From Folioceros fuciformis (taxonomy: Eukaryota): a stretch of 47,482 bases of DNA. Positions 10,891 to 37,832 of the stretch are shown here, piece by piece. The stretch is from NCBI GenBank assembly GCA_049999805.1, contig JBNGIO010002948.1, forward strand, positions 1 to 47,482, given 5' to 3'. Position numbers and translations under genes: made by a program. Within the stretch, counting starts at the first letter, position 1. Each line of letters starts with the position of its first letter. The notes beneath the pieces are model-generated. The model was not told the DNA's origin. It saw only the letters and a program-made list of their open reading frames with translations, and ran no database searches.

Positions 10891-11090
10891 CCTCGTCGTC
10901 CAGCGCGCTTTCTGCTCCTCAGAACGTTTTTTTTGAACCGGAGGTAGTCTCGAGACGTCTCAAACGCTGGGTTGGAGCACCCGGGTGCTCCAACAAATTC
11001 CCTGAAAATGACCCCCTTTTCCAACCAGCACTTTAGGAGCAGGCCGGTTTGCAGTTGCAGAGAGCTTATCCTTTAGCAGCGCCAGAAACA

Positions 11091-11951
11091 ATGGAGGGGC
11101 CGGGGCCTGGGCCGGGGTCGGGGCCGGGGCCTGGGCCGGGGTCGGGGCCGGGTTCGGGAACAGGATCAGGGCAGGCGCTGGGAAGTTGCGGCGGCGGCGG
11201 CAGTGTCGGCGCCAGCAACAGCACGAGCAATGGTGGTAGCGGCAAGAGCAAGGCGATGCGGCGGGAGCCATCGGTGGAGGATCTCTTCGCTCCCATGTGG
11301 CGCCTGGATGTGCACTCCACCAAGCCGGCATCCGAGGATGCGGATTCTAATCGAGAGCCGGAGCCGGAAAGTTGTGTTGCAACCTCGATTCCGATTCCCA
11401 GGGCCAGAGGCCGTAGCGGGAGCGGTGGGAGCAGCTCGGCCACTTCATCTCACTCTTGGCCTTCCTCCACCTCCTCCGGGATCGCAGATGTGAGGTCTGT
11501 AGGAGGCGCGGCACCCGCGTCCGGAGCTGGATCTGCACTCTGCGTAGGAGGACATGAGGGATTGGCGCCAGCTCAGACGGCTGCGCTCTCCAATTCCGCT
11601 TCCGACGATGATCAGGTGGCCGTGGACGAGAGGAAGCAGCGGCGGATGCTGTCGAACCGAGAGTCCGCGCGCCGGTCCCGGCTGCGGAAGCAACAGCACC
11701 TGGACGAGCTGCGGGCGCAGGTGGCGCATCTGCGAGGCGAGAACAATCAGATTATGAGCAAGTTCACTCTGGCCACGCAGCACTACGCGCAGATCAGCGA
11801 GGAGAATCGGGTGCTGCGCTCGCACGCCATGGACCTCAGCCGCCAGCTCCAGCGGCTGCATCACGCTGCGGTGGCGCACAACGCGGCGGCTGGATTCCTC
11901 AGTGTGGCAGGGAGTTCTACAGTAGAGACACCTGCCGCGACTACTCCCTAG
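11091..11951 (+). CDS. Intronless bZIP transcription factor (group S/C-like basic region) with Gly/Pro/Ser-rich N-terminus
   Basis: DERKQRRMLSNRESARRSRLRKQQHLDELRAQVAHLRGENNQI...EENRVLRSHAMDLSRQLQRL. First ATG at 11091. Confidence 0.9.
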   Translation: MEGPGPGPGSGPGPGPGSGPGSGTGSGQALGSCGGGGSVGASNSTSNGGSGKSKAMRREPSVEDLFAPMWRLDVHSTKPASEDADSNREPEPESCVATSIPIPRARGRSGSGGSSSATSSHSWPSSTSSGIADVRSVGGAAPASGAGSALCVGGHEGLAPAQTAALSNSASDDDQVAVDERKQRRMLSNRESARRSRLRKQQHLDELRAQVAHLRGENNQIMSKFTLATQHYAQISEENRVLRSHAMDLSRQLQRLHHAAVAHNAAAGFLSVAGSSTVETPAATTP

Positions 11952-15212: not shown

Positions 15213-17459
15213 CTAGGAGGCTACTTTGAAGAGGCTACGGCGCTCGAGAGTAATGGGAAGGCCTTGGTTGAGGCACGCGATGGGCCACTGTTTGATTTTC
15301 TCGTCAGGATTCACCGGCTTCCATCTGCGGGAACAAGTCGTGACAGGCAAAGTCACGCGACCCCGTACAGAAAGCATTCTTGCACCTACAGACCAACACC
15401 AACACCAACACAACGATCGAAGGAGGAATTCATCGTTACGTGAAGGTGGTGACGAGGTGGTGCAAAAACACCAGCATCTCCTGCTTGGCGAACTCGCTGC
15501 CGGGGCAGCCTCTGGGGCCCATGCCGAAAGGGGAAAAGGAGGGCGCGGCTATGGGCTTCTCGAACCTGGACGGGTCGAACTGCTTGGGGTTTGGGTGCAC
15601 CTCAGGGTTGAGGTGCACGGACCTCCAGAACACCAGCACCCGCCATCCTCTGGGTATCAGCATGCCTGCAACATTGCAGACGAACATGTCAGGCGATGAA
15701 TGAACATGTCTCTCATGGCGATGCGCGCCCCGAGACCACTTGTGCCACACAAACACTAGCCTCCAGGTGGTTGGAGTAAGGAGGGGAGTGAAGAGGAGAG
15801 CAAAGGAAAGGAAAGGACAGGAAAGGTAAGGAGACCTTGGAACTCGAGATCCCTTCGAGCTTTCCGCATCACGAATGCTGCGGGCGTGGTGATTCTCATC
15901 GTTTCTTGGATCACCTGAAGAATCAATCTCGTCAGCTGAGAACCAGGTAGGAGGTCAGAGATGCACATGTCATGCTCACCAATACGAATGAAAGCGGGGC
16001 TCAATGACGTATGTCTGGAGCTCATGCATCATACATACCCGCCATGTGAGTTGCATCTTCTTGGTGTCCTCCCAAGTCACGTACTGGCGGCCCGCCAGCC
16101 TCATGTCCTCAGCGATGGCATCCTGCTCCGCCTGCACCACCCCAGCCAGCCATGGACGGCGTCACCACGATTTGCATGCAAAATTAGGGGTTACGAGTCG
16201 GCGAGGGATGTCCAGTTACTAGTACTACATACAGTACCTGAACTTGCTCCAGAATGTGGGGATAATCGGCCAGGAGCTTGACGACCCAGGTGAGGAAGAT
16301 CCCAGGCGCCCTGTGGCCTGCTCCCAGGAGCAAGAGCAGGTTGTCCAGGACCTCGCCGCTTCGAAGCTTCCTGGCCTGAGCCTCGTACCCTTCCACCACG
16401 TCCGCCTCCATGAGCGAGCTCAGCCCGTCCAGCCCATCGACTTGACCGGAGGCGTCGTGTCGCCGCCCCTTCCTCGCCTCGATCAGCTTGTGCGCGAACA
16501 GGTCCACCTTCTTCCGGGCCTGGAGCATGCAACGTGATTGTACGTGGTGAGAGTAACTTTCATGCATGCATGCGATGGGAATTCGTGTAACGGGAGCTGA
16601 GGTGAGGTCTGCGACGCTCGGGCCGGCGGCCGCTATAACTAGTCTCACATTCAAGGCCCTTCTGCGTCCCATGAAGGGGATGTTGACGGGCAGGCTCATG
16701 AGCCCGTTCTCCATGTCCGCAAATAGATGCAGCAGCTCCTCCACCTGCTCGTGGCTGTAGGATTGGTAATCGGAGCCGCAGGTGAATCGCAGCACCACTC
16801 GGAACGCGAACTGCAATGAATGAGGAATCCGGATCCATCCGCGGTCTCTTGAGCATGCTGGCACGACAGCGTCGGAAGGACGGGAATTTTGAATGGTGTC
16901 CATGGAACCGACGTACCTTGGTAGCCTCCTCTTCCATCACCACCTTCTCTTCCCAGGGTTTCATGCACGACAGCGCAGTCTGGGACACCGCGGTGCAGAA
17001 GCCTCGCATGGCCTCGGGGGCCAGCAGCTGGTGCTGCAGGAGCTTCCTGAGCGCGGTGTGGCGGGCTCCCGCGGGGATCATGGAGAGCGAGTCTCGGCCC
17101 AGGATATCGTTGGAGTAGATGGCTCTCAGGGCGTGGTGAGCTTGGGGCGTGGAGAGGCAGAAGGCAGAGGCGTCCATGGTGGTGGTCACCACGGCTGGCC
17201 CGCCGAACACATGGGTCGAGAACGTGTCCCCGTACTTTTGCGTGTGGCGGCTCAGGAAGTCGTCCACGTCCGAGAGAAGGAGGTCCAAGGTCTCTCCCAG
17301 CCAAGGAATGAACCATTTGCGGCCTGCCGGAGTCCGAAGCTTAGCAGATTGCGCCTTGCCAAGCCTCAGAGCAAGCATTTCGTACATGCCGCTCACCAGC
17401 AGGGCCATCACAACGCATCCTGAGAGCAACATCAGGTACATAGCCGCTAGAGCTTCCAT
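15213..17459 (-). CDS. Cytochrome P450, CYP85 clan-like (multi-exon)
   Basis: N-terminal membrane anchor, PWLGETL, KYGDTFSTHVFGGPAVV, ExxR (QETMR), FDPSRF, heme motif FGMGPRGCPGSEFAKQEMLVFLHHLVT. Confidence 0.9.
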
Positions 17460-17977
17460 TTTCCTGCCTGTGGCCTATCTGCAACTCAAGTCTCAATCAG
17501 TGGTGGAGTCTGCTACACTCAGATGTGGACACTGCACCAAACCTCCTTGAGGGCATGCAGGTATGGAGCTACTCATATATATCTACCTATGTTCACATCT
17601 CTCAACATTCCGCAGCGGCTCGCACGCACACAGCGGATCAGCATCTCCACTTGGACCATGGAGGAGTTGTAGATGCGGAATTTGCAGGCAGCAAATCACC
17701 TCAGAGTCGCAACGACATTCGTCGATCGCCTTGAAGTTGTTTCAAGGCAGACAAATAGGACTGTTCCCGAGATATACCGCGCCCTTCGCACTGCTAATGC
17801 TACCTTCACTGGAACAGACTTCAGTGGATGAAACAGTGGAAACATCTGCGGGATGAGCTCCATCCATGTGTGAGGCGACATTAAACTCGATTGTGTGGAC
17901 CAGGTCCACACATGCAGCCGCGGACAGGAAGGCTTTGGAAAGATCGAGGTCGTGCACATGTTTCGATGTCGTATTTC

Positions 17978-18394: not shown

Positions 18395-21300
18395 CTACTG
18401 GCTTAGGAAGTTCTGGGGTAGAGCAAAACTTACCCTGGCCTGGGTTCTACCCTGAAACCAAGTGCTACATTTAAGAGCAAAGATCTGCATTTGGAGGGCA
18501 GACCACACTGGTACATGCAGCTCAGGACATGAGAGAAAATACCTCCTGAAGCATGCTGCTACCTCCCTCAGGAATTGAGGCTTCAGTAGGTGTCCACATT
18601 CGATTCAGGGCCTACAGAGGGAACAAAAGAGCTAACTAACGTTAACAGGTTTGGATACTCTTATTCCTCTGACGCAGCGTGGCATAGCGAAAAACATGTC
18701 TTAGACCGACTCACCCGCACATAGTTGTCCTTGTCATACTCGTAAGATATGGTTGAGGTTTCCTCCTCACCAGCAACCTGCCCCAAGGTTGACCGCCTCC
18801 TTCTAGAGACAGGCGCAGCAGCTTGGGCTTCATCCCACTGGACGAGGCTCTCCAGTCTACAAGACCGGATAATTTGATCGAAATCACGACACACGTTGGA
18901 GTTGGTGTTTCACTATCATTACAGGAATCCAGATAGAGACAAAGGGAAAGCGAACGTACTTGCATGACACACGCTTCTGTAGCAAGTGTACAAGTTCAGG
19001 GCCAGAGAGGTCAGGTCCTTCAGCAGCATCTGCTACGTGCTGCGCATAGTTGAGGATGCGTTCAGGGTTGCTGAAGCTTGGTGCTCTCTCTGCATCAGGC
19101 TTCCATATCGGATTGTACGTCTGCACATGTGCACAAGGTACGTGACTTGAGTGGATTAGGTCCCGAATCCTTCAATCCACTCCCTGAACGCAAGAGGGAC
19201 AAACTACTCATTTACGAAGAAAGCACGAGAGTCTGCAGGGATTGATTGACACAAGGGCATATACGGAGAAGAGATACTGCGGAAGCAATCACCCGTATCT
19301 CCTTGAAGTCATCCTGTTCACCTTCGTTCTGCCCCAGTGCAAGCTTGAGCTTGCGGAAGTACCGCTGCTTGCCCCACACGAAAATACCGACACTCATGCC
19401 AAGAAAACCTAGAGATCCGATAAGCCCTCCGCATAGCCTGCGCACCGCTGTTCAACACAACACTTCACATCACGATCAACACTGCAGGCTTCGCAAACAA
19501 GAAGGGGGACGGGGCATGACAAACTTGGTGACGCCGTCGCAACATAGGGAACAACTTCCACAGATGCCTCGGCCGATAGAGGATAGGGTACATCACTATC
19601 ACACGCACCATAGCAGCCGAAGTTGCCCATGTCACTCACAGAAATATGCAGGACATAGGTAATTCCCGCTGTACCCTGTGCATCGAGTACCAAACGGTCA
19701 GCAAGCGTGCCAAACCAAGGCACCTAGCAAACTTGTGTGTCCAACAGCACGTTCCACAACAAATGCTCACATTGGGCTGAAACTGCATGGCAGCCAGGGC
19801 CGCATTGCAGACTGCCACCGGTGCCTTGAATATAAAGCCAGCACTTCCGAAGCTCACCACTTTGGACAGCTCTCGCTGCATATGATGGAACTTCGAAACA
19901 TCCGATTGCCGAGATTTAAGAGACTCGGCATTCTCTGCACCAATGGTGTAGTTGGTCCCCATTGGCAAGGATATCGTCAATACTCCACCTTCTATTCGCA
20001 AAGTAACCTCAAGTTGGAGCAGATGACCATCCGCTGCACGATCAGAACACGACACTCTTAGCCTAAAGGCACAAAACCATTCACAAATCTAGGCAGTCTA
20101 TACAAAACAAGTCGCAGCTGAAAGGGGAATCTTCTTGTACATTCAAAATCGCAAGAACCCTCATCCAGAAGTGGAATTCACCTCGAAAATCACTGCTGTC
20201 GGGATCTCCGACAACAATTGCCGGTACAACTAGGCCCTTATTAGTAGCGATCTTCACTTGATCTGGCGTATCAATGAAAGGTGGGTCATTGTAGGGGTCC
20301 AGCTGCGCAATACAACTCTGTGAATCCTCATGTCCTTTTCCATCCGACACAGTCACCACAACCGTATCATTCCCATTGAAATGCTGCTCCCTGCACTCAG
20401 ACCAGGGCAACAAATGACGACCTCAAACCGAGACTCAACTACACGTAGAATAGTGCAAGGAACGAAATTCCAGGACTGTAATGCAACAAGACCATCTTCC
20501 AAACAACTTTTCACTTTCATACGATCATCAGCGAATAAATGCTACCATCACAGACAATAGTTTGGATTCCTAGATATCCACATGGAGATGTCCCCTTTGG
20601 CAGACCAACACCGATGATCATGAATCGGAAAGGGGCGTCATTGAAGCCACACGCAGCCCTGAATGACCCTGGTTTGTGACGTCATACCCTTCATAGAGTA
20701 GCGCCGCAAGAGCTTGGTTCGCAAGACTGGTTGTGCCTGAAAAATGGACGTCTCCGGGGTGAGAGGGATCCGTAGGTAAGATTGTGAATCCGGTTATCCC
20801 CATATAGACGCGTGATGGAAGGATAAAGCTTCCATGTTTGGCGGAAACCTTTACAGTAACTGGTGTAGTTAGATTGAACGAGCTCACTTCAAAGACCAAG
20901 CTCCCACTGCAATCCTCTACCACATCCACACACATGTAATCAGCTCGCATCAGGCAACCAGTTCGGAGTACTCTGCCAAAGCACAATGGATACAGCAAGG
21001 GCACAGATCTGAGAGATGAGTCCAACCTCTGGCAAGGCATAACGGCTCCCTCCAGGCCTGTGATTAGACCTGGGGACGAAGACACATGCGGATAATCCAA
21101 AATCGACGACCCATTTACTGGGTGGTACATAGAGATACTCTCATCAGTACGCAGTCATCTTCATGCACTCGGAAAGCCGGATTCAAAAGAGTCAAGGGAC
21201 TTACTGTCACTAACGATCACTGCAAATGGGCTGCCAATAATCACTTGGTTATGGTAACTGAGTGAAATGTTGTAGTTCCCAGTGTGCACAGGCTTGTAGA

Positions 21301-24300
21301 ACATAATATACTTCCCCACACCCATGTGAACAAACGCTTGCTTATCTGCACTACCTGGTCCGCTTATATCAAAGCCTATGAGATTGGCGTCAGCAAGTGT
21401 GGGATTGCCAAATTCATCGCTGAGAAATACATCGATCTCGTCCCAGTATCTGATAGATGCTTTACGAGACAGACCTACTCCACTGGCGGACGACAAGGAG
21501 GCACTTGGTGTTCCTGCATTCACGTCACCACGAAAAGAGTTTAGCGCCCAACCAACAATCGGCCTGCGGCAGTCCGAGAAAACGTTTCAAGGTCCATGCC
21601 TGCAGAGATAATGAATACATACCTGCATTGACGGTGAAGAAAAATGGAGACCCAAAAATTTCCACCCCACCATTGCTGACATACAGGTGATACTGCCCAG
21701 CTTGCGTTAGGTTGTAGGTCAGAGAAAAGCGGGTGCCATTATCAAGAGATTCAATCTGACAACTTGCATTCACCAGTAAATGCACTCCAAGCCTGAACAC
21801 TTTTGGCACCAATATTGGAGCCGTTCCATTGGTTGCCACTTCGGGGGACAACATATTGTCGTACTGATCTCGTAGTGTGATGAGCAGGGTCAAGGAAACC
21901 CCAGCCAAAACGCTCTGAGATCCTCCTGCCCATGCACCTGTGCTTCTAGGCGTATCCAAATCACCTGCAATGGCACCACGTTGGCTCTCGGACTGACATA
22001 CACGCCCACACCACCACAAACTGGACATGCTGCTTGTACCCAAAGAATATTTGAAGATATTGTGACTCGCCTGAGAGGAATGTAAAGGCGATAGGCGCCA
22101 TAGAAGCGCCAGTTTTGTCCCCAATCCGTAGCTTAAACTTACCTGCTACAGTCAAAGTGAAGGACAGCACCTGCGCAGAGCTGTTCTGTGGCACAATATC
22201 TACTTTTGCCGAAAGCATCGTGCCATTTTGATCAATTTGGGGAGTGATGTCCTTAGCACCCACTGATACATAATTGCCATACATGTCTTGAGCCATAAGA
22301 ACAAAACTTGCTGTTTGCCCTACACGAAATGTGCTTATTCCGTTGAGCCATCCTCCAGTGCAGTTCGCTATGGAAAATTGCCCTGCACAACATTCAATTA
22401 GTAACAGCAAATGGGGTGGTCCAGTCATATCCAGCAAGCTGCATCTGAGAAACTTCTCAACCTGGAAAGTAGGAGTACTGGAAAGACCCCGGGATGCTCC
22501 CATCAGAGTTTCCCACTTGAAGCACGTACTGCCCAGCGTCATGCATTGTAAAACTGAACAGCAGCATTTCTTGAGATCCATTATTGAGAGGATTGAATTT
22601 GATGTTGAGAAGATTTCCACCCACGTCGGTCAAACCATTTTTGGCTACAGCAGTGAACACAGTACTGTTTGCAACTGCGTAGACAGGATTGTGGTTCTTG
22701 TCAACTTGCCTTACGACAAAATTTGCTGCCACTCCAACCGTAAAACTATTGATTCCACCCAACCATTCTCCGGCACAGAAGGGTGTTGACACCTTCCCTG
22801 AATGACAGAGACAACCGGTGAGCAATGTCGACACATGTACATGACCTTAATACGTAATTGTAACAGCAAAGCGAAAGACATAGCAGGTTGGACAGAAGAC
22901 TGTCAGTAGCACGCACTGATGGAACATTTTCTTGCCCACTGCAAATAGTCAGAATGTCAAGTGGGCTGCACGATGTCTAACCAAAATCTGACACAAGAAA
23001 TCTACCTGGCAATATCATTATGGAGAATGGACTGCCTGAAATAGCCTCTCCAGGTGCCACAGTCCCTAAGGACACACTCAGGCTATATGGGTCAGGCTGA
23101 GCCAATGCAATCGAGTACTTGACAGAGATGATGCTCTTCTTTCCCAGGTTCATAACGCTAAACGGTAGTAGCGAAACCTTCGGGGAAATGCTAAGGAAAG
23201 CGGTTGCCGAGTAGGAAACCACAGAATTGTTGAACACGTCCTGCAGCTGGATTTGAATGGTTAAGGAGTCTCCTGCATTCCCACCTTGCAATCCAGTTCC
23301 TGATGCCGTACAGCTAGGCGGATCCAGAGGTCCTACAATCAGAAGCAGAACTGATAAGAATATGCACAACTGTAACCAACATTTCTGCTCTGGAAAAGCG
23401 TTCTTCAGATACATGACCAGGCAGCAGTCAGCTCCATCGATCTGATACTATTAGCCCAAGCATGGCTATTATGAAGACGTGTTTACCGACCTTAGAGTAG
23501 GCAAGGCACCTGCATAGACGAGCTTTGTGTGACCCGAAGCAAGTAACGTATTATTCCATCCAACTGTGATGAAGTAGAGGCCAGCAATTGTAGCATTGTA
23601 GATCACAAAGTACGTGCCGTTTGTTTGAGTAGAATTCATCACGTATACGGGAATAGATGGGCCACTTTGTGTGAGAGATACAACAACTCGCAATGTGTCT
23701 GCTTCCATTGAGGTTGGATTTCCGGAGCTGTCTTTAAGCTCTACCTCAAATTGCGATAGCTGCCCAGCATAAGAGTTTCCCAGCCCTGTTCCTTCAATTA
23801 TACTCCCTTCAGTGGACTGAATAACTGCAGATATCACCTTACATTAGAGAAATCGTGCACGTACTGATTGTTCTCCTCTGAATACCTCAGATGCCTTTCC
23901 ATGCAATGTCTACGAGGTAATGAGTACAAGCAAGATCTACCCGCTGAACCAACAAAGAGGACGTCATGGTACCCTGTGAGGAACCCGTGAAGTGAAATGC
24001 TGAGCCCTTGATGTACTGATTCCCATCTCCAACTTGTAGGATATAGTCGCCAATCTGGGTGACTGTGAAGGTCATTGACAACTGGTTTGGGGTGCCAGCA
24101 CTCTGATTTGAACTTATCACAGGCCTGATTAGCAGATCGGGTATGTTAACAGGCTCGATATTCCCGGTATTGTACAGTGTTGCCAGAAAAGTCACTGTTC
24201 CCGATTCCAATGTTGGAACAGGATTACCAAAGGCATCAAAGAGAGAGATCACAAGGTTTGCGACAGAACCGAGATTCAGATGATTGATACCGTTGTACCA

Positions 24301-27193
24301 ACTTCCACGGCAATCAGGTACAGATAAGGGTCCTACAAATCAAAACCAAGTACGTTTTCTATAGATGAGGCTATCTACAAGTCAAAGCGCTGCACCCATG
24401 TCTGCTATGGCACAGATAAGCACAAACAAGCAACGTACCATGAAGAACAGTGAATTTCAAAGGACTGTTGGAGATGCTCTGCAAACCAGACGCGCTTGAC
24501 ACATTTAAAGAAAAGTTTCCAGCTATACTGGACTCAAAAGTGATGTCCTGAGACCCAGCTTGAACATCTGGGGACACAGTTACTGACTGATTATAACCTT
24601 GAACAGACACAAGGAAATTATAAACTTCAAAGCTGCCGGTCAGCACGTTAACAATGTTTCCAAATTCATCGCTCTGTATCACCCGGAGCGTGACTAGACT
24701 GCCAGCCACAAACTCCGAGCCATGTATCCAAATTCCTTGACAAGTACCTGGAAACACAGGACCTGCAAGAGCATAGCCTTGTATTACTCAGGATCCGAAA
24801 TTTGGAGGGTCTCTTCGATCAGCAGGTGCAAAAAGTGGATTCGAATGGCCAGTTCGGCAAGGTCATCAAGGCAGGACGTGATCAACAGAACTTGCCAAGA
24901 AACTGAGAACAGGTTCCCATTTGGCAGTTCTGAGGGATTGAAATCCTGATTCTCAAACTGTAGAGAAAAAAGCTTACCGGCACTGACATTGAAGATGAAA
25001 GGTGAGCCCATGATTCCAGTAACGCCATCTCCAACATGAAGCAAATAGGAACCAGGCGTGAAGGGCTTGAAACAAACAGCCACTTGGCTGGGAAAATTCT
25101 CATCAGAAGTCATTGTGAGATTGTACAGCTTCATGGCTGCCGGAAAATTTACCACCTCGACAGTAAACTGGAAAATTTGACTGTTAGAAAGCGCTGGTTG
25201 CAAGTTACCATAAGCATCCATTTGCGCAACTACAAGATAAGCTGTGTCCCCGGCCACGAACGTGTTCATAGAATTGTACCAAACTCCAGTACAATCTGGA
25301 ATTGAAAGAGGACCTGCAAAACCACCCCGATTGAGAACACACCTGAAGAGCAGAAGAAGTAAGGAGCTGTTTAACCGGGATAAGAAGCAGCGCTGCTCAC
25401 CAATGGTTGTCGAGAAGGGAAAAGGCGAGTTCTTAACAGTTTCGGTTGCAGTACCGACTTGAATATAATACTGCCCCACTGCCCATGTAGGAATGAAAGA
25501 CACGATAAACTTAGACTGGTCCGGATCCACACTTGTTGAATAGTTGAGGTTTCCAAGTTGGGTCATATTTGCATCCAAAAACATCACCCCTAGACTGAAG
25601 GAACTTGAGATCTTCACAACATTTTGAAAAGAATCGTACGCAGTAATCATGAGAGTTCCCTTATCAACTCCTGTTTGGAATACATCTTTCCCAGGCCATG
25701 TACCATTGCTCATTGACACGTTCACAGGACCTGGGGAAATGGCACAGAACCAAAACAAGTCAACCACACACAAGCACATTTTCCATATCCCGCAACCTCC
25801 ATCATAGACGAGATCAGCAAGAGACTAAAGATGTTGGGTCATGGTTATCTGCACAATTTCTCAAAATGCTAAGGTGCCTTGGATGGGGTTGTCCAAACCT
25901 GTAATCACCGTGAAGGGTGCTGGCACATTCGATAAACCTCGTCCCTTCAGAAATACGAAGAAATTATAGGATCCAGCAACTATTGGAGTGAAGGTGAGAT
26001 AGTAACAGCCGGCACAAAGTGGATTTCCTGACTGCTGGATTCCCCCTGGTGCAATGGAGACATTTTTGTAGGTCTGCTGGATGTAGCTGTCAAAGTTCAC
26101 AATTTCTGAGCTGCCTGTATTCTCCCAAACAATATTTCCAAAAGAATCAAACTGCTGCACGACAAGCCTTGCCTCCACTCCCGCTGTGAAAGTGTTGACG
26201 TACCCGGGCCAGGAGATAGTAGAGATGGAAGCGTCCACCAGACCTGTTACCCACCAAATTCCAAAGCCATGCCACCAGAGTAAAGCAACGCTTCTTCCTG
26301 CCTTTTCTTCTTTTTTTTTTTTTTTTTTTTTCTGTCCGTCTTTCTTTCTATCTTTCACCTTTCTCTTTAAAACTACGTTGAAAACAAGATTTCAAACAAA
26401 ACTCCACGAGTGATGAAAAACGAACCAGCCACAAATTCCACAACAGGACTGTTGACAGAGTTGTCCAAAAAGCTGCTCGGTTGCTCAGATTGATTTGGAG
26501 CGTCTTTGAGCACATAGAACTGATCGAAACCAAGATGAATATGGTAGGATGATGATGAGCCAGCCAAATTGTTCGCCGCAAAGCAAGTCACTGGATATAT
26601 TCCATAAGCGGTGATCTGGTAGTTGCCAACAGTGCAAAAAGCTTTCGGAACGATCTGTCTATTTTGATCCATAATGGTGACATTGAACACATAGTATGTC
26701 CCACTATAGAATCTACATTTCTCACAGTTCTCACAATACTGATCAGTTGTGTTGCAGAATAGTCTTCCACAATAGATATCGAAAGCCACAATAGAGAAAT
26801 TGGCAGGTACGCCTTCCACAATCCTGAGTGGATTGGGACAATCAAGACGTGTGCAATATCCTTCATCGATCCAGCTCGTACCATTCCACCATTCATCTTG
26901 TCTTGTAACTATAAAAATCAGAAGTCCATTACATGGATTCCAAGGGGAAATTTTTTTTGCAATGACTTAGAATAAAATCAGAATGTTTCAACAAACATCT
27001 ATAGTATTCTCCCAAAGTTGCACATAGTCAAGAAAGCTATAGAATAATCCTCACTCACACAACTCAATAATTGAGAGACAAATTGAAGGTATAAGTAAGT
27101 ACGATAAGGTGGAAATGCTTGTGCTCCCAAGGCAAATAAGATAAGATACACTGTCAATTGTTGTTGCCAAAACCACATTTGATTCACCCTCAT
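18395..27193 (-). CDS. GEX2: GEX2 (gamete expressed 2)-like type I membrane protein, copy A, ~12 filamin/Ig-like repeats
   Basis: Signal-peptide exon MRVNQMWFWQQQLTVYLILFALGAQAFPPY (27193). Then ~12 exons of form GP...C.G.W...F.AG...D.FGN...G.Y.L.V...I.GSPF...G. GEX2-type C-terminal region (HFNGNDTVVV, PYNDPPFI, VGDPDS, CNAALAAMQF, SVSDMGNFGCYGAC), TM segment GLIGSLGFLGMSVGIFVW, then a cytoplasmic tail. 3' end uncertain. Confidence 0.82.
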
Positions 27194-27913
27194 TTGATTT
27201 CAATGAAACAAGTAGTTCTTGCTTTTCTTGTGCTAATGATAGTTCCTAGTGATTGTTGTGATTTTCATTCAGCTTATGTTTGGTACATGATTTTGAACCC
27301 AAGAATACATCACACCATGCTTATTTTATGATCATGTTAGATGAAGAAGTTATGCAAGTAAGTATATCATTAATTAGTGGTGAAAAAAAAATTGAAGAGC
27401 GGATACAACAACACACATAGCACTTACAAGAAAAGGCCTGCGAGTGTAGTGTGTTAAGTGGAGGCTCGGAGCACATGTGGGATAACAGTAGAGAGAGAAA
27501 GTTTCTGGATTTATATAGCTATATATTCGTATAAAGTGTGGGAATTCAGAAAAGACAAATGTCCTTAGCGTTGGCAGGGTATCATCTCGGCCGATAAGTC
27601 ATTTTATGTAGTTTTATTAGTGTCCCGGCATGATAGAGCCTACTAGGTTGCGAGCTGCGCTGCAGAAAAAAGAAAAAACAATGAGAAATACTGTACATTG
27701 GTAGGAATCCAAGTGCGAGATCACGGGAACGGGACACGGCGGGTAAGGTCGTTCAAGTGACGTGGCGGAGGACGAAAATGGCGCCACGGCTCAGTCGAGG
27801 GCAGCGGCCTTCGGATTTGTTGCAGGTGGTGTGGTGGTGAGAGTTTCTGCGCAGTTTTGTGATGTTCCACAAGAATAAGAGCAGAATGGAAGGCGTTCCC
27901 TCTGACGGTGTGA

Positions 27914-27956
27914 TTGCAAGATTGCAAGATTGCAAGAGCCTTGCAAGATTGCAAGA
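27914..27956. repeat. (A)TTGCAAG short tandem repeat just upstream of the GEX2-B start
   Basis: ATTGCAAG x3, AGCC, TTGCAAG, ATTGCAAG. Confidence 0.7.
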
Positions 27957-27964
27957 CTCTTAAG

Positions 27965-30900
27965 ATGAGGCTGCAGAATGGGATTGCCAAGATGGCGGTG
28001 AGATTGCATGCTCACGGTACAGGAGGATCAGGGGCAGGAGCTGGTGCAGGTGCAGGGGCAGGGGTTTGGTTTCCTACCCTAACAGCACTTGGGTGTGGCC
28101 TTGGGCGCGTCCTCATTCCCCTGCTCTTGTGCTGCAATTTCCTGCAGCGGGCAACAGGCATCAAAGTGAGCGGTAAGGGTGGGGCTGAGCGGGGTGTGGC
28201 TGTCGGAGGCGACTAGAATTGAGTTGGAATCTGACAGTGAGCTGCGTTTGGTTTATGGTGTCCCGCACAGGACCTCCTGTGGCTACCGGCAGTTCAGCTG
28301 TATGGGACAGTGACTCTGTGCTCACTGCCGGGAGCCTTGCAAGTATGAACCTGTCGTTGGTGAACACCACTGGCCTTCCTGCAATACGGGATTCCTGGGT
28401 TGAAAACTTTGGAGGCTATCTCGGTTTCTCTTTCGTGGATGGAACTGGGACAAAAATTTCAGGTCCTGCTATACAGCTGGGGAACACAACAATACCAGGC
28501 TTGCAGTTCATAAGTTTTAATTGGACCACAGCGGGCTCCTTTGCTTTATGGATTAATGTATCTGGTGTACCAATTTCAGGATCACCCTTCTCGTTCTATA
28601 TAAACCCAGGTGATCAACTGTAGCATGTCTCTTCTACACCACACAACACACAGCGTCACCTCTAGCTCACCACCTTCTGGACCGCGCACCTGGTATGCCT
28701 CACGGACCTCCTGGCCATGGGCAGTCCATGCATGAATGATTTGTATCGCACCTGCTGTTCCAAGTTATGGTGTCACATCTGCACCAAGCCGGAACACCAC
28801 TCTAACAAATGTGTGGTGTGGATTCACAGGGCCACCTAATTATCCTGCTTCTGTTGGCTCCTGGGTAGATGGTGTTCATGATTTCTCCATTGATACTCAG
28901 GCTACTTTGACAATTACGCTGGTGGACGCGTACAACAACGACGTCTTCCTCTCACCAATGGAGGCTGGCCACAACTTAATTGTCTACTTCGTGAGAGGTG
29001 GAGACTTTACCTCCACAATCTTTACCACAACCATGAACAGGAACATTGAATCGGTGACTTTCAACACTCAAGTAGCTGGCAACCTCACACTGGCTATTGT
29101 CAGTAGAGATTTCGAGATTATCAAGAACTCGCCTTTTCATCTTTTCGTATCCGCAGGTACTATTTTGCCAATACTGCATTGCAATGGACCTATCTGTTGT
29201 AGGAAACACTAGCTTCTCACATGCATGCTTCTGCTGCTTTAAATGTGCACCGCAGCATTGTATCATGTCATCATGAGAGAGGCTTCTGTGATGCATAAGC
29301 CTGGAGTTCTGTCATCTGCATGTTGTATGCTTCCTCTCGGCTTTTTGCCATAATGAGAGAGGCTTCTGTGATGCATAAGCCTGGAGTTCTGGCATCTGCA
29401 TGTTGTATGCTTCCTCTCGGCTTTAAGCCATAATGAGAGAGGCTTCTGTGATGCATAAGCCTGGAGTTCTGGCATCTGCATGTTGTATGCTTCCTCTCGG
29501 CTTTGTGCCATAATGAGAGAGGCTTTTGTGATGCAGGCCCTGTTTCATTAGTGAAGTCACAAGGTGCTTGGTACCCAGATAATATTCCATCTGTGCAAGC
29601 AGGGAACCAGGCAAAATTTGTCGTCACTCAGATGGACAGATATGGTAACACTGTATGTCCTGTGAATGGAAACCAGCAGATGATCACTTTGACAGCCTTT
29701 TTCACAACTTACTCCTCTTCAGCAATACCGTCCATCTCAGCACAGGTTAATACGACTCTGGGCCAGACCACATTTACCTTCACTCCAACTGCAACAGGGA
29801 AGTCTCTCTTTACAGTCCAGGACTCTCATGGTTCAACTCTTGCTGGTCTGCCCCAAGTGTTCACCGTTACTCCAGGCAAGTCATCTTCTCGTGAAAGGAT
29901 TCCGTTGCTTTTGTTCCTAGTCCCTTTCTTGTTGTATCCCCGCAGAGGGAATGGTCTGCTCAACGGAAGTTCTGAAGCAACAGGGAGAGACGTACTGTTA
30001 CTGATGCTCTCTTTGGAGCCCTCTTGGGCTTGGAATGAACAGGTCCATTATCCACTCAACACTGCGTGGCAACCCTTGTTTACTCTGGAACGAGACTGGA
30101 TGGGGTCCCTCTCTTTCGTGCAGGGGTGCCGGCCACAGTAGTGATTCGCCTTCTAGATGCGTTCGGGAACATAGTGAGCTATCAAGATGGTGCAACAAAC
30201 ATCTTCCCCAACTTCGTTGCGACGTTGGTGAATGAACCTTTAGTCGCCATAGCTGGATTGACCTGGGCTCCAGTAGATAGTTCTGGGTCGCAAAAACTAA
30301 CCTTCATCCCAATTTCTGCCGGCGCAACAGTTCACCAGCTGCAGATAGGACAAGGCACGCAGGCTGTAGGAAATACGCCTCTGAGCTTTGCGATCTACCC
30401 TGGTAAAGCATCCCACAACCCTTTTTCTCGTCGCTGGAAATGCAAGCCTTCTTTGAGTCTAGTGTCAAGCAAATGCTGCCGATGGCTAGAATGTCCCCTG
30501 TTCAACAAACCACGATCTATGCAAAATTCGCTAAATGGTCTGTCTAACTCCCCATTTCTGTTGTCATCAGGGATCCTGTCTCCAGCGAACTGCACAGGCG
30601 GCTGGATGATGCCAGGCAGCCATTCTTTTGGAGTGGTTGGCACAGAAGTAAATCTCAGAGTGTACCTAATGGATTGCTGCGGCAACAACTTAACAGTAGG
30701 CAATGGTCTGGTAGCATATCCCTCCTTCTCTGTGAGCATGCAGGGCTGGGAATCCGTCGGAACAGTCTACAATGGTGGGATATATGGAAGCATTAAGACC
30801 ACTAATGGAAATGGTTATGTCGACGTGACCTTTAACCCAGTAATAGCTGGCAAGGGTAGCATCATTGTGTCTGCCATGTACTCTGGTGTCACGGCTCAGC

Positions 30901-33900
30901 TGCAAAATAGCCCTTTCAGCATCATATTGCCTGCTGGTGAGAGGCGTGATTTATCGGAGGCATCTGGCCTTATTCCATATCTGTGATCAGCTACTCACCC
31001 TTGTGGGTGCTGTTCTGACTTCCTCAGGGCCAGTGTATCCGATCAAATGCTTTTGCTTTTTCTCTCAAGGCGACACTTTTCATGCTGGCAGTACAGCTCT
31101 AATCGAAGTGGTTCAAGTGGATGTCTTCGGGAATGTTGTGGGGCCACAGAACTATCAGTCTGAGTCAGTGCGCTTCAATGGCACGGTGTACGAGAATGGT
31201 GTTCCTTTGCCTGCAGTGACCGTCAGTGTGGCAGGTCCAGTTCAGGGATCATATAATGGAACATGGACATTGACGAAAGCTTCTGATCAGTACAGCATTC
31301 GTCTAACGGCATTAGATCACACAACCACTGCTACGACCTATACCCCCGTCGTGGCCGCTGATTCCACCTTTACGGTTCTGCCAGGTAGCAGGATGACGTG
31401 TTGCTCTGCTGTGCACATCAAGCTGTCGAATCCTCTAACGACAGACTTGTCTGCTCTGCTCTTCCCTGGTGACAGCTGAAGTGAATGCAAGCCACTCAGT
31501 CGTGCGATATGGAACCAATTTTGGAGACCCCTTGCCTGTGATCTGTATGAGCAAGACAGTGTATGCCGGTGTCAATGACAAAATTCAGATTGAGCTTCGA
31601 GATGCCTACTCTAATATCATTGCGTCCCTCTCTCAGAACTGGAATACCTACCACTTCCTAAAATTCACCTTGAGCGTACTGAACGGTTCCATAGACATAA
31701 CACCTACTGTGCTCAGCCAAGTGACGAATGTACCCAACCCAGATGGATCTTCCCTTCAGGCAATCACATTTCTACCCTCTCTTGTGGGACAGTTTGACCT
31801 CCAGGTAGCAGGTGACAATGGGGAGACACCTATTTGTGGCAAAACGACCTTGTACGTCATGGCTGGCAAGTGAAAGCTAAACCTTCTCGATGGCTCATTG
31901 TAACTTGACTTTAGGTCCCTTGTGGTCAAAATGGAAGAGCTGCAAAGAACTCATGGATGAGAAGTTTGTGGGACTCTGGTTGTTGGATTGCAGGTTCTGT
32001 GTTCGTGCCTTACTGTGTGGGTAGCTGGCAATATGGGGTCAGTACAGCGCAAGCAGGATCTACAATCACTCTGCTTGTATTGCTTCGTGACGTGTATAAC
32101 AATTCCTTCCGGCAACAGTACACAAGTCCACAAGGACGTGCTTATCGCTTCAATGTCGTGCGAACTCTGGGATATCAGAATGTCATAAGGAATGTCCTTG
32201 AGACTGATCCAGATTCAAATGGATACAGCCCGCTATCCTTCACCCCCATACAAGCCGGCAACTTCCAGCTAGATGTTGGCAATCAAGATCAAGCGGGCCT
32301 CACAAGGATCGTCGGTTCCCCCTTCAATTTCACAGTCACCCCAGGTAGTTTGGCTTTCAGTTTCACAGTCAATGGTTACTGCTGGGAGGTAGAGTCTGGT
32401 TACCTCTGACAGCAAGGGGTCTGACACGCTGTCCATTTCTCTCTTGTGAACTGTGGTCTGAAATGTCTATGCAGGTGATGCGTCTGTGAGCGACTGTGTG
32501 GGAAGTTGGTCTGCGGGAGTGAACAGATATCAAGCTGGTGTTAATATTACCTTTCAAGTGCTGATGAAAGACAGGTTCAACAACATTGTCACTTCCCCGA
32601 ACAGTGCATCCAGCTTCCTCACCCTCACCATGACTGTTCTTGTTGCGGACGGTTCACGGGTCATTCCTTACTACAATTACACCTATGACAAGAGTCAGGG
32701 GACAGGCTACCAATATCTCCATTTTCAGATGCAGACTATGGGCCAGTTTCTTCTGCAGGTTGGGTCTGGGGACCAGGTGATATTTGGTTCACCGTTCCCC
32801 TTCACCATTACCGTCGGTATGACTTGTACCCAGCTTTGAATGATCTTCACACATGTAACAGCGCTTTGGTTGTTGATGGTCTGACCGTACGTGTAAGGAA
32901 AATTCTGACCGTTTTTCTGTCTTCAATGCGGCAGGCCAGCCCATGGTATCTCAGTGCGTAGGATTCTGGTTAAATCAAGTCAACGTATTCCAAGCAGGAT
33001 ACTCAACTGCAACATTAAATGTACAGCTCTCAGATGCATTTGGGAATCCTGTCACAGTTGCTAACGGAGGTAGTCCCTTGTTCATGTTCACCATCACCGT
33101 GGTTGGTGTTCAAAATACCGGAAGTGTGATAGCAAATGTGACTCAAATACCTGGGCAGCAGATTCGATTTGTTCCCATACAGGTCGGATCCTATCAGCTT
33201 AGCGTTGGGAGCAAATCTAACATCATTGGCTCCCCGTTCTCCTTCACAGTAGTTGCAGGTATGGGAATGATGTTTCTTTCACTTATACTGGTTGGCAGGA
33301 TGATCCTGTTGCCTGGATTCTCAACAATGTGCACTGAAAACCTGCAGGTTCTATATCGGTACGCTCTTGCATTGGACAATGGGTTGGCAATTACCATTTC
33401 ATCTCGGGCCAACTGGCAAACCTGAGTGTGTTGTTAAAGGATGCTGTTGGCAACACCCTTACATCAACCAGCCAGACTGGCTCCGTGTCTTTTAGTGTCA
33501 GGGTCGACGTGGGCAACACCACCAATGCCATATCAAATCTGCAAGTTTCTTCTGCTCAATTGGGCTACGTATACATCACTTTCGTGACCGTCTTAGCAGC
33601 TCAAAGTATGAAGTTGAGGGTGGGCAGCATGGTTGGTGGATCTTGGCAAGAGCAAATTTCAAATTCGCCCCTTTCATTCAGCGTCACTCCAGGTGTGTGT
33701 TGTAGCCTTGTTCTTCCATCTGCAAGATCTCCTGGGTCAGCCTTCGCGGGATTTTAGATTTGGATCTGTAAGCAACCAGTGCTGGTCTTTTGCAGGGCCA
33801 ATCCAATCCTCGGTTTGCACTGGGGCTTGGAGAAGTGGTATCAACCAGTACCAAAGACCGGCCGTCGCACAATTCTTTGTTACACAACGAGACGCTGCTG

Positions 33901-36900
33901 GCAACCCTGTCTATACAACAGCTGGTGGGGCCTTGCATTCTTTCCAAGCTACTTTGTCAGTCGTGAATTCTGGAGCCTCTATGGCCATGTCGAATGTCAC
34001 TTGGACATTATTTCCTGGGCAATCATCAACTTGCGTGCAAATTTTGAGCTTCACACCTAAACAGGATGGGTACTTCATGCTTAAAGTTTTTGATCAGTTG
34101 GGGACCATCCTCGGTGGACCTTTCTTCTTTTGGTATTTCACAGGTACTAGTAGTTCCGCATGTGCTAACATCTATGGTTGCCAAACCTTCCAAGCATGTG
34201 GCCCCTGAGTAGAATAATGTTACAGGACATGTTGAACCAACGAAGTGCACTATAGCTGGACCCGGATTATACAATTCAACTGCGGGGACTTCCTCTTCCT
34301 TTGTGATCCAGCTGAATGATGTCAATGGGAACCCGGCAGATGTGACGCCACAGCTGTCCACTTTGGGAGGAATCACAGCAGTTTTGCACATGCAGAACAC
34401 CACCTATGAGCTGGAAGTTAGGATAGCTAGAGATCCTCAAGCAGTTTCGCTGTTCGTGGCTTCTTATACTGCTATAACGGCTGGGACTTACGACATACTC
34501 GTGTACTACGCTGGACAGGTCCTCAAAAGTGGCCTTGTGAAGACTGTATATCCAGGTAAGGTAGTTTCTGACCTTAGCTCAGTAACGGAGGCGATACGAA
34601 TGTTCTGAAGTCGATCTCTTGGATGATGCAGGACCCTTGGACCCCCGAACGTGCTCTGCTCAGGGCCCAGCACTTCAAGGGCCACAGAAAGCAGGAACGG
34701 GTCTCACATTCCAAGTCTACACCTATGACTCGAGCAGTAACTTTGTCCCACATACCAGTGTTCAAGTTAGTGTGATTCCAGCAGATGGAGCCAGTGTGAC
34801 CAACATCACCCTTGATGCCAGTGGTGTGACAACAGTGAACTTGTCTATTACTAAAGCTCCGCGAACCTATCTCGTTTATGTGTTCGTGGCGTCAAATGTT
34901 GCTACTACTGAGACAGGTGGCAAACCACCTTTGATAGCTGATTCCAGCGACCCGACGAACGTAGCTGGTAGTCCATATCAGGTGGCAGTCCAGGCAGGTA
35001 CTCAAATGTGCAGCAATCCTTGCATTGGTTGAGGTCACGTTACTTGCACCTTTCTGCAGATCTACTCTTTTGTCCACAGGAAGTCCAGATCCTACTAAGT
35101 GCACCGCAAGTGGAAACGGACTGAATGCACATGATTCACTGAGGCAATGGAATCCTATCGTTGTGACAATTAAAGACAGCTACGGCAACCCTGCTTCTGG
35201 ATACTCTTCTTCCCTTTCGATAAGCATCACAGGTGTGGGTGACTATGAGACCTCTGATATTCAAGATCAAGGCAACGGGCAATACCTCATCCAGTTCAAG
35301 CCTGTGAACTTGGGAAGCTACCAAATCTCTATAACCTTGCAAGGGCAACCTTTGACGGGCAGCCCCTGGAACACGACAGTAGTTGGTACATCAACTCCGC
35401 CTCTCCGTTATTGAGCTTGTTCAGACACATGAGAAGATGTAAGCATGGCCAACTTCACTTTCACATAATCTTAGGTTTTCAGTTACCGACAGCAAAAAAT
35501 GACACGGCTTCTACTACGGATGGTAGCGCCGTGGCCATAAATGTCACCGGAAACGACCAGGTTTACTACGGAAGCGCGACTGTTTTCGACATCCCGTTGG
35601 TAAAATCCCTGCTTTTGTGGGTCTTGAAGGTTTTTGCTTGGCTACGTTTTCCACGCTAAAAAGATTTTGTTTTCCAGGCTCCTGGTAACGGTTTCGTCAC
35701 CATCACAAATAATCAGCTCCTCTACACACCCAATCACCAGTATATTGGGACTGATTTGCTGGGCTACACCATTCAAGACGGATACAATCGCACAGCCACA
35801 GCATATGTGGCGCTGACTATAGTCCTCAGGCCTCCACATATAGTGTCGATGCCGTCCATCATTGCTGGATTTGAGGATACACCTCTGCCAAGTTATGGGT
35901 GAGCTCAGTGCCTGCATGCTTGTGAATGGTTTCTGAAGTTCAAGCAGCTGTTTGGGTGTGGTTTATATACAACGAGCAGCATGCAAGGAATCAAGGCAAG
36001 AACATGCATGCTGTGTGGCATTGCGGTAACATTCATCTTGTGACAGTGGCATCACAGGAATGTCGATTGATTACAGTCGGCCGCAGGATGTGATCTACGT
36101 GAGCTTGACTGCCGGTCATGGAAGTGTGTATACAGCACAACCACGTGGCGGACAGATTAGCCTGCAGGGAACCGTCGCGTCATTGAACAGCAGCATACAG
36201 AATGTGCACTACGTGAGGTACATACAATGTTTTGCAGGCTAGGCTGTGGTGTGGCAAAGTGGAGAAACTTTTCTCACACTGGCTCCTTGCTTGGCAGCAA
36301 TAAGCACTTCAATGGAAACGATACTATCACACTGAGTGTGAAGGACTGGCGGGGCAATGGTGACACCAGGTTCCTGGTGGTCATTGTGCAGCCAGTGAAC
36401 GATCCTCCCTGGGTGCAGGTGCCCTCACCCTTGCAGATCCGCTCTTTGGCAGTGAATTTTGGGGGAGCAAACATGCCAGGCATTATTGTTGGTGACCCTG
36501 ATTCAGCAGATGTGAGGGGTAAGAGTCCAGAACTGATTGCCCTCTCGGTTCTGTCATACCACAAGCTGCTCTTGGCTAACTTTATGATGAGTGTGCAGAC
36601 GACCAGGCGGTGTTCTTGCTCGTGGTCGCGCTCGAGGTGGCTGGGGGCCTTCTCAAGCTGACGTTGCCCGTCCAATACAGACGGGATATTAGTCTGCTGA
36701 ACACGACGAGCAATGTTTGGGTGGACAGACCGGAGAGCCTCCTTGACGACGATTTTGTGAATGTGCAAGGGCTGGGAATCCAATTCGTGGCCCCCGTGGA
36801 TGTGTGCAACACGGCTCTTAGACAGCTGGTGTTTGCAAAAGACGACCTGAATGTAGGCCTCTTACAAGCATTGTCGAGACCCTTGAGCAGCAAGCAAGCT

Positions 36901-37832
36901 GGAGGGTCCCGGAGCTGCTGCTGATGAGTGTCGTGGTGGGCGGAGTGCAGATTTCCGTCAGGACAGTGAACCTGTTTGTGAGCGTGAATGACGGCGGAGA
37001 TTGGGGTGATTGCATCAACTGCACGAGTAACGCTTCTTTGCCTCTATCCATGAGCGTGATCGTGGAGATCGAGCTCCTGGACTGGTTAACAAAATTAGAG
37101 AACGCCTGGTCTGACACCCTTTGTAAGTGCCCCCAGCTAGTGACAAGAGGATTTTGTCTGTATCGTTTGCGTGAGCCTCAAAAGCAAGGTCGTTGGTGCA
37201 GTGGCAACGCGGAGAATATTAGGAAGCACCGCCGGATCGGTGGGCATCGCCTGTATTCTGTTGGTTTTCCTTGTGCTACATCTTTCACGGAAGGCGCGGA
37301 TGAAGTACAAGGCATTGGGATTTGTGGATGCAGATGAGCTCAATCAGGAGCTTCTATGCGAGCAATCAAGGGCGAGTGTAACAATCTTTTGTGTGCTCGA
37401 GGGGCAACAGAGGCATGCATGTTGTGCACACCCAGGTGCGTCGTTTCTCACGGGGGGCGGATCATGATGCAGATATTCAACCCGATGTGGATACCGGCGG
37501 CTGCGGGGGACCCTGAGTTTCGTGTCTCTTCCACCCCGAATCCTCTTCTTTTCCATGCGCGCAAGCATGAATTCAGACACAGGTACATAGCCTGACGTAG
37601 AGCCCCGCCTTTTGTGGCCAGCAAGGCAGATCGGCTTGCAATGAAGATGTAGATGAGCCATCCTGTGAGTTGCAGGTTGATGAAGGTGAACAACGAAGTG
37701 GAGAGGGAGATGCTTCTAGGATTCAAAGAACCGTCTGATTCATCAATTCGAAGAACAGCGAGGCCGTCTGTGTTCCAGGAGGAGATTTCAAGCCTGCCTG
37801 AGGATGAAGGCCCAGGAGCAGAGTGGTACTAG
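27965..37832 (+). CDS. GEX2: GEX2 (gamete expressed 2)-like type I membrane protein, copy B, ~15 filamin/Ig-like repeats
   Basis: Hydrophobic leader, then ~15 repeat exons (28271-35385). An Ig/cadherin-like module follows (LPTAKNDTAST...INVTGND...YTPNHQYIGTDLLGYTIQDG), then NKHFNGNDTI, PVNDPPWV, VGDPDS, CNTALRQLVF, SVNDGGDWGDCINC and TM segment AGSVGIACILLVFLVLHL. Stop TAG at 37830-37832. Confidence 0.85.
29273..29536. repeat. 80-bp intronic tandem repeat, ~3.3 copies
   Basis: Units starting ATGAGAGAGGCTT(C/T)TGTGATGCA at 29273, 29353, 29433 and 29513, nearly identical. Confidence 0.95.

Follow-up and report, generated by a model that had tools for sequence, protein, structure and literature searches.

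Two head-to-head GEX2/FUS1-family genes of Folioceros fuciformis with arrays of Ig-like repeats encoded by single phase-1 exons

The 47,482-nt contig JBNGIO010002948.1 of Folioceros fuciformis (assembly GCA_049999805.1), referred to here at its full length as the window, contains two divergently transcribed genes arranged head to head, each of which encodes a long array of immunoglobulin (Ig)-like repeats with one repeat per exon. The DNA is eukaryotic and has short introns, and the region from 21205 to 35385 holds the repeat-encoding parts of both genes as stop-to-stop open reading frames (ORFs). We consider it likely, with a probability of about 0.82, that the two are ancient paralogues of the GEX2/FUS1 family whose arrays arose by duplication of exons with phase 1 at both ends (1-1 exons), that this architecture was inherited within the family, and that the products serve gamete adhesion. 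The first-pass annotation of this DNA had described one repeat per exon, flanked by symmetric phase-1 introns in split Gly codons, and had read the pattern as exon duplication. Its core observation, an exon per repeat in phase 1, is confirmed: 28 of 28 array junctions are in phase 1 in our gene models, and the RNA evidence agrees at the eight junctions that it reaches.

RESULTS

Gene models were built from a scan of all frame-compatible donor/acceptor pairs between successive ORFs, followed by exon assembly. The plus-strand gene occupies 27965-37832 and comprises 25 exons encoding 2332 amino acids (aa), with a frame that is open throughout the model; a 208-nt exon 1 is followed by 15 repeat exons of 306-390 nt and then by nine exons leading to the stop at 37832. 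The minus-strand gene runs from ~27190 down to ~19200 and includes 11 repeat exons of 309-360 nt (26243-25899 to 21513-21205), preceded by a divergent first module, m1. All 27 array exons (15 plus exons and 12 minus exons, m1 among the latter) are multiples of 3 nt in length, and every array junction (16 plus, 12 minus) lies in phase 1, the split codon being Gly at 25 of the 28 and Ala, Val, or Ile at the exceptions. The end points 21205 and 35385 given in the first-pass annotation coincide with the outermost exon boundaries of the arrays, and the junctions that it quoted exist at 28609/28830 and 32816/32935, where the doubled Gly of the quotations represents a single split codon. The same annotation had named mixed intron phases as the observation that would overturn its claim; tabulation located mixed phases only outside the array, downstream of 35385, where the C-terminal junctions of the plus gene follow the series 0, 2, 2, 1, 0, 1, 0, 2, all eight being confirmed by RNA. 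Phase 1 in the plus gene therefore characterizes 16/16 array junctions versus 2/8 C-terminal junctions (Fisher p = 2e-4), a comparison in which the array junctions are not independent events because duplicated exons inherit their phase. The further claim that each array exon is skippable in frame follows arithmetically from exon length and phase: because all 27 exons are multiples of 3 nt with symmetric phase-1 ends, the loss of any one of them preserves the reading frame.

Transcript evidence was drawn from the contigs of one small public run, X1, which contains 0.26 of the sampled words and whose type was entered as "RNA?" by guess, with 29/31 contigs placed being 99-100% alike to the window. 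X1 was treated as containing spliced RNA on account of the GT..AG or GC..AG joints in its contigs; 15 of the 24 joints were listed. Both genes are transcribed in this run, and eight of the 28 array junctions were confirmed by six joints and two loose contig ends, with no contradictions. The confirmed junctions are 29875/30043, 32344/32475, 33258/33348, 33692/33796, and 34555/34632 in the plus gene and 23973/23824, 21623/21513, and 21205/21117 in the minus gene. Coverage by X1 was absent at 25312-27567 and 28132-28695, and at 27568-28131 it consisted solely of loose-ended contigs on a low-complexity stretch. Enumeration of all possible pairs indicated that six of the 28 array junctions are forced into phase 1 by GT/GC..AG dinucleotides and frame alone, and together the RNA-confirmed or forced junctions number 11 of 28.

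The exon limits coincide with domain limits. Among 26 exon peptides (15 from the plus gene and m2-m12 from the minus gene), the Pfam family PF23616 (Ig_GEX2_N) was detected in 21 and PF00630 (Filamin) in 7, at E<=0.001. Exon 10 of the plus gene scored 70.7 bits against PF23616 (cut-off 27, E 1.3e-19), and residues 5-111 of its 113-aa peptide contain model positions 1-105 of 105. When the exon peptides were aligned, every intron/exon end fell in the same columns, and an xSPF pattern was detected near the end of 20 exons, its Pro being 8 residues ahead of that end in 18 and 7 residues ahead in the other 2. An AlphaFold model of the exon 10 peptide, with a predicted local distance difference test value of 90, displayed eight strands over residues 8-112, and its Foldseek superposition on the filamin domain of TRIM3 covered 113 columns, the template modeling (TM) scores being 0.76 and 0.81. 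A profile built from the 26 exons matched filamin A (2e-13), gelation factor, and the TRIM45 filamin domain end to end, as well as the solved Chlamydomonas FUS1 chain 9qs0 (E 4e-7). Our own hidden Markov model (HMM) of the repeat recovered only the 26 exons of the two paralogues in the window, a result that is circular for these exons and informative solely for the lack of further matches.

Among longer proteins, a word-indexed search for homologs of exon 10 returned nothing that scored, and an exhaustive HMMER search with the same exon yielded 80 relatives in all. The best matches (E 8e-72 to 2e-29) were proteins of Selaginella, Adiantum, Ceratopteris, and Diphasiastrum that are uncharacterized or annotated as "GEX2 N-terminal Ig-like domain-containing", and flowering-plant GEX2 ranked below these lycophyte and fern proteins. 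The C-terminal 533 aa of the plus product aligned over their length with residues 604-987 of the Linum "Protein GAMETE EXPRESSED 2" (E 4e-45), with the Diphasiastrum protein P0007 (E 3e-71), and with a Selaginella relative (E 7e-66), and this part contains Big_9 (E 1.4e-7) and Cadherin_5 domains according to Pfam. A GEX2-like C-terminus thus follows an array of Ig_GEX2_N and filamin-type repeats, and both genes are therefore assigned, from sequence, to the GEX2/FUS1 family, of which they are old paralogues with expanded arrays. Identity as a filamin, that is, an actin cross-linker, was considered and rejected, as filamins begin with an actin-binding domain of calponin-homology repeats, whereas a 208-nt exon alone precedes the first plus repeat and the C-terminus is that of GEX2. 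Separately, a 5434-aa protein from ENA (P0008) showed a regular series of 50 partial matches, spaced ~100 residues apart, to the repeat's C-terminal half and is probably an unrelated microbial Ig-repeat protein.

Repeat arrays of widely differing length were found in the relatives. Our HMM counted 4-5 repeats in the GEX2 proteins of Linum and Cichorium, 5 in Diphasiastrum, 8 in Adiantum, 8-14 in Selaginella, and 15 in Ceratopteris, compared with 15 in the plus gene. The fragment P0004 is orthologous to plus exons 10, 11, and 12, with which it shares 54, 66, and 46% identity, respectively, and it carries non-domain inserts of 28 and 25 residues exactly at both junctions, each bracketed by Gly; these inserts look like read-through of stop-free phase-1 introns with multiple-of-3 lengths, as would be expected from the architecture described here. 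Thirty-five of the 80 HMMER relatives are ORFs of <=215 aa, nearly all with one complete repeat, and the contigs of the 10 short-ORF relatives that were looked up measure 0.6-4.4 kb. The expected split position is Gly in 35/35 domain ends of these short ORFs, and a non-domain tail nearly always follows this Gly; in P0064, the next repeat directly adjoins. The codon after the Gly begins with a purine in 28/35 cases under a strict count and up to 32/35 otherwise, which fits a GTR donor. In cotton, published GEX2 genes have 14-16 exons, and a Big_9 domain is reported. The cotton exon number would correspond to about one signal exon, some five repeat exons, and nine C-terminal exons. Judged from these peptides, the array architecture is probably family-wide and not peculiar to this genome, and it would be inherited rather than a local event because the intron position seems common to the relatives.

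The repeats share 16-39% identity with exon 10, and the duplications that produced them are accordingly old, none being recent. At such identity over ~110 residues a tree was judged unresolvable, so the repeats were compared by reciprocal best hits, which gave only four pairs: m7 with plus exon 14 (P14) and m12 with P16 between the genes, and P9 with P10 and m4 with m6 within a gene. Exon m8 is most similar to plus exons 15 and 16, and it follows from these three relationships that three membrane-proximal, filamin-type repeats predate the split between the genes, while some within-gene duplications may be later than this split. Exons m9-m11, which are of the Ig_GEX2_N type, sit between the counterparts of P15 and P16, an arrangement consistent with blocks of exons having been inserted or lost.

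In the plus gene, exon 1 (27965-28172) would supply the start codon and a hydrophobic N-terminus that may act as a signal sequence, and it ends in phase 1 in the model. Over its region 28023-28062, RNA contigs match a low-complexity stretch only, with loose ends, and provide no dependable support. Inspection of the plus translation by eye revealed hydrophobic stretches in exon 1 and just N-terminal of a basic cluster near the C-terminus. All 15 repeat exons are of the 1-1 type. Exons 2 (28271-28609, 339 nt, Pfam Ig_GEX2_N), 3 (28830-29156, 327 nt, with another acceptor at 28869 that is likewise in phase 1), and 6 (30571-30936, 366 nt) were defined in silico only. Exon 4 (29537-29875, 339 nt) uses a GC donor, and a loose contig end at 29876 has the first bases of exon 5 (30043-30402, 360 nt), the acceptor of which is backed by this RNA end and the donor of which comes from the scan. 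Exon 7 (31028-31384, 357 nt) is represented by the RNA contig 31013-31383, which begins 15 nt within the intron. Exon 8 (31476-31865, 390 nt) has a predicted GC donor; use of a GT donor at 31811 instead would likewise keep phase 1 but truncate the domain. RNA confirmed the donor of exon 9 (31994-32344, 351 nt; 32344/32475) and the acceptor of exon 10 (32475-32816, 342 nt), where the contig reaches 32815, as well as the donor of exon 11 (32935-33258, 324 nt; 33258/33348) and both ends of exon 12 (33348-33692, 345 nt). The acceptor of exon 13 (33796-34143, 348 nt) was likewise confirmed, its donor being in silico only, followed by the donor of exon 14 (34226-34555, 330 nt; 34555/34632) and the acceptor of exon 15 (34632-34997, 366 nt), where the contig stops at 34998. 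The last repeat exon, 16 (35080-35385, 306 nt), is of the filamin type (Pfam Filamin, E 1.5e-15), with junctions taken from the scan. The C-terminal part (35475-37832) consists of nine exons in mixed phases that encode the Big_9/cadherin-like domain, a putative hydrophobic membrane span, and a short tail up to the stop.

Several tandem repeats occur in and around the plus gene. Intron 3 contains an 80-nt unit in 3.4 copies with a 95% match (29265-29535), an 8-nt tandem repeat of 5.2 copies lies immediately 5' of the start codon (27912-27956), and a 12-nt Gly/Ala-coding repeat within exon 1 (28024-28062) draws unrelated, loose-ended RNA contigs. Four GC-AG introns were noted, three among the 24 introns of the plus gene (29876-30042, 31866-31993, and 37372-37472) and one in the minus gene (22070-21965), with RNA support for 29876-30042 (loose end) and 37372-37472 (joint). 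The GC-AG class makes up ~1% of plant introns, and four here seems many.

The head-to-head spacer (26909-27964) is without RNA cover and may harbor the first exon of the minus gene, for which ATG codons at 27193 and 27178 are candidates. Exon m1 (26908-26426, minus strand, 483 nt) ends in phase 1, has a tentative acceptor and 5' boundary, and likewise is without RNA cover. Its 160-aa product is Cys-rich and ends in "...SPVVEFVAG", and neither Pfam nor our repeat HMM gave a match to it; m1 may be a strongly diverged repeat or a different N-terminal module. An A-rich run with in-frame Lys repeats (26297-26358) lies within the first array intron and was passed over as a repeat in the placement of RNA contigs. 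The 11 repeat exons are all of the 1-1 type and on the minus strand. Exons m2 (25899-26243, 345 nt) and m3 (25401-25730, 330 nt) were defined in silico only, and m4 (24978-25313, 336 nt) has another acceptor at 25295 that is likewise in phase 1. Both junctions of m5 (24439-24762, 324 nt) permit phase-1 GT/GC..AG pairs only. A 17-nt loose end at 23973, the donor side of m6 (23973-24332, 360 nt), equals the start of m7 (23510-23824, 315 nt), a filamin-type exon (Pfam Filamin) whose acceptor is backed by this end. Exon m8 (23006-23332, 327 nt) is a model, the junction from m9 (22462-22797, 336 nt) to m10 permits phase-1 pairs only, and m10 (22071-22382, 312 nt) has a predicted GC donor. The donor of m11 (21623-21964, 342 nt) was confirmed by RNA (21623/21513), in a contig that begins at 21988, 24 nt within the intron, and m12 (21205-21513, 309 nt), which is of the filamin type, has RNA joints at both ends. 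The C-terminal part of the minus gene (approximately 19200-21117) shows mixed phases and RNA joints at 21205/21117 and 21027/20916, with a partial exon model; its segment 20147-20386 is homologous to the plus C-terminus (39% identity, E 4e-14, tblastn) and is the sole aligning stretch.

Elsewhere in the window, ORFs at 11037-11951 (plus strand) and 15436-17474 (minus strand) resemble, by eye, a cytochrome P450 and a transcription factor of the bZIP class. The stretch 13824-14216 (minus strand) is an exon of dihydroorotate dehydrogenase with <=83% identity to any database entry, its top-scoring matches being Sphagnum at 81-82%, ahead of Selaginella, Marchantia, and ferns at 67-76%; on these matches the DNA comes from a land plant, and the gene set looks bryophyte-like.

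DISCUSSION

The arrays described here most likely reflect a history of exon duplication. Each Ig domain corresponds to one exon, with the introns situated between domains, after the first base of a linker Gly codon. Unequal recombination between the introns on either side of such a 1-1 exon would have duplicated it in tandem repeatedly, each time adding a whole domain without disturbing the frame and leaving the plus gene with 15 domains and the minus gene with 11-12, all N-terminal to a conserved GEX2 C-terminal module and putative membrane span. Two features bear out the exon-duplication reading of the first-pass annotation, namely that all modules belong to one domain family and that the introns fall in one alignment column. 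The same class 1-1 module form is tied in the literature to exon shuffling in metazoans, and an origin of this kind, with exons truly shuffled among unrelated genes in the manner of the mosaic proteins of animals, might be proposed on this basis. However, all 1-1 exons here encode the same domain family, the sole other recognizable domain (Big_9/cadherin-like) is split by mixed-phase introns, and our HMM located the module in no other gene of the window, which makes such an origin very improbable. The architecture would have been inherited in the family. A rod of Ig domains would project from the sperm surface and mediate attachment, as homology with GEX2 and FUS1 suggests; both the plus and the minus gene would encode long sperm adhesion rods.

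Several observations weigh against this interpretation. Phase assignment at 17 of the 28 array junctions comes from splice consensus and the repeating pattern alone. Unspliced X1 contigs (33882-34552, 35077-35438, and 31013-31383) meet predicted introns, the first running unspliced through 34144-34225 and the second continuing beyond the exon 16 donor; since X1 is unspliced at these introns, the run must also contain pre-mRNA or DNA, and retention of intron 34144-34225 would encounter a stop at 34206. Transcription in X1 does not imply expression in sperm. RNA supports the minus-gene joint 21027/20916, which removes a 110-nt intron after a 91-nt exon (21117-21027), shifts the frame, and brings a stop 8 codons on. 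The unspliced frame stays open across this intron, and a donor at ~21070, which has the "PG|GT" look, would preserve the frame; the isoform may be non-productive, it may encode a secreted protein that is truncated, or the copy may be decaying. Outside its array, the minus gene, whose 5' end is also tentative, may be mis-modelled or non-productive. The duplication mechanism itself is deduced from the end state alone, and the evidence on introns in the relatives was read from peptides, not from DNA. Part of these observations might suggest that the regular phase is to some degree an artefact of model building, with some repeat exons joined or cut differently, as only six of the 28 junctions are forced by themselves into phase 1, same-phase alternative sites exist at several junctions, and the three unspliced contigs span predicted splice sites. 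Nevertheless, all eight array junctions that RNA could test agree with the model, in-frame stops follow nearly all predicted donors, the Pfam domain limits match the exon limits, and the plus frame is open over 2332 aa into a GEX2-like C-terminus. An artefact of this kind is therefore highly unlikely in our assessment, and duplication of 1-1 exons in two old GEX2/FUS1 paralogues is retained as the preferred explanation.

The frame neutrality of every array exon also raises the prospect of a splicing cassette system, in which regulated skipping of Ig exons would generate sperm-surface isoforms of varied length or specificity. Any skip would be neutral, since the 27 exons are multiples of three with symmetric phase-1 ends, and Arabidopsis GEX2 is reported to rescue the mutant without up to four N-terminal Ig-like domains, so that shorter forms could work. 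By contrast, none of the 15 listed joints (of 24, in one small run) skips an exon, all of them linking neighbors, and the Selaginella isoforms X1 and X2 differ solely by 96 N-terminal residues, with no internal repeat involved. Regulated skipping is quite unlikely in our assessment.

The functional setting is provided by published work on the family, one of the few in gamete recognition whose conservation extends from green algae up to angiosperms; its members are single-pass membrane proteins by which plant and green-algal gametes adhere ahead of fusion. In Arabidopsis, GEX2 resides in the sperm membrane, is required for gamete attachment, has 7-8 Ig-like domains in its ectodomain, and binds GEX3. 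In Chlamydomonas, FUS1 is a protein of seven Ig-like domains that works on the plus gamete; loops of the first and the third of these domains bind MAR1, which is specific to algae. In Marchantia, GEX2 is expressed in differentiating sperm independently of DUO1. No egg-side partner of GEX2/FUS1 in land plants is known from these accounts. Compared with flowering-plant GEX2, the genes of F. fuciformis share the combination of Ig_GEX2_N and filamin-type domains, the C-terminal module with Big_9, and a putative membrane span, whereas they differ in having 15 repeats in the plus gene against the 4-5 counted by our HMM in Linum and Cichorium, in a C-terminal identity of ~30%, and in the presence of two head-to-head paralogues. 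The lycophyte and fern GEX2-like proteins (Selaginella moellendorffii XP_024527230, Ceratopteris KAH7281701, Adiantum, and Diphasiastrum) have arrays of 5-15 repeats and a homologous C-terminus, although their identity to exon 10 is only 27-32%. Chlamydomonas FUS1 belongs to the same family according to the literature, and its chain 9qs0 matches the exon profile, but its domain number and its MAR1 partner set it apart. Animal filamins and the Dictyostelium gelation factor share the Ig-repeat fold, whereas here the array is preceded by no more than a 69-codon exon and is followed by a putative membrane span.

The closest parallel in gene structure is offered by the animal Ig/FN3 mosaic genes built from the modules described by Patthy, in which the domain likewise equals the exon, the phase is symmetric at 1, and modules are gained or lost in frame. 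Unlike those genes, the present ones multiply one module type within a gene, give no sign of inter-family exchange, and belong to a plant. An excess of 1-1 exons is described in the literature as a metazoan feature, and the first-pass remark that a 1-1 array is unusual in plants fits this literature. The family, the class 1-1 modules (textbook knowledge for animals), and the long-array relatives in databases are already known, and no new kind of system is claimed. In the searchable literature we found no paper joining GEX2 with "intron phase" or "exon duplication", and the single statement on gene structure encountered there, for cotton, is confined to exon numbers.

What the locus contributes is a pair of diverged GEX2/FUS1 copies with arrays 2-3x longer than those that our HMM finds in flowering-plant GEX2, and a clean plant instance of the 1-1 exon-module pattern that the literature places mainly in metazoans. 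Because of the way the array is built, whole domains can be added or removed in frame, which offers a simple genetic route to the differences in repeat number among relatives. One may speculate, as a rather unlikely extension, that whole Ig exons are gained and lost in lineages whose sperm swim, and maybe skipped in splicing, with either route tuning the length or specificity of an adhesion rod and contributing to species-specific gamete recognition. If true, this would represent a plant counterpart of the modular evolution of the Ig superfamily in animals.

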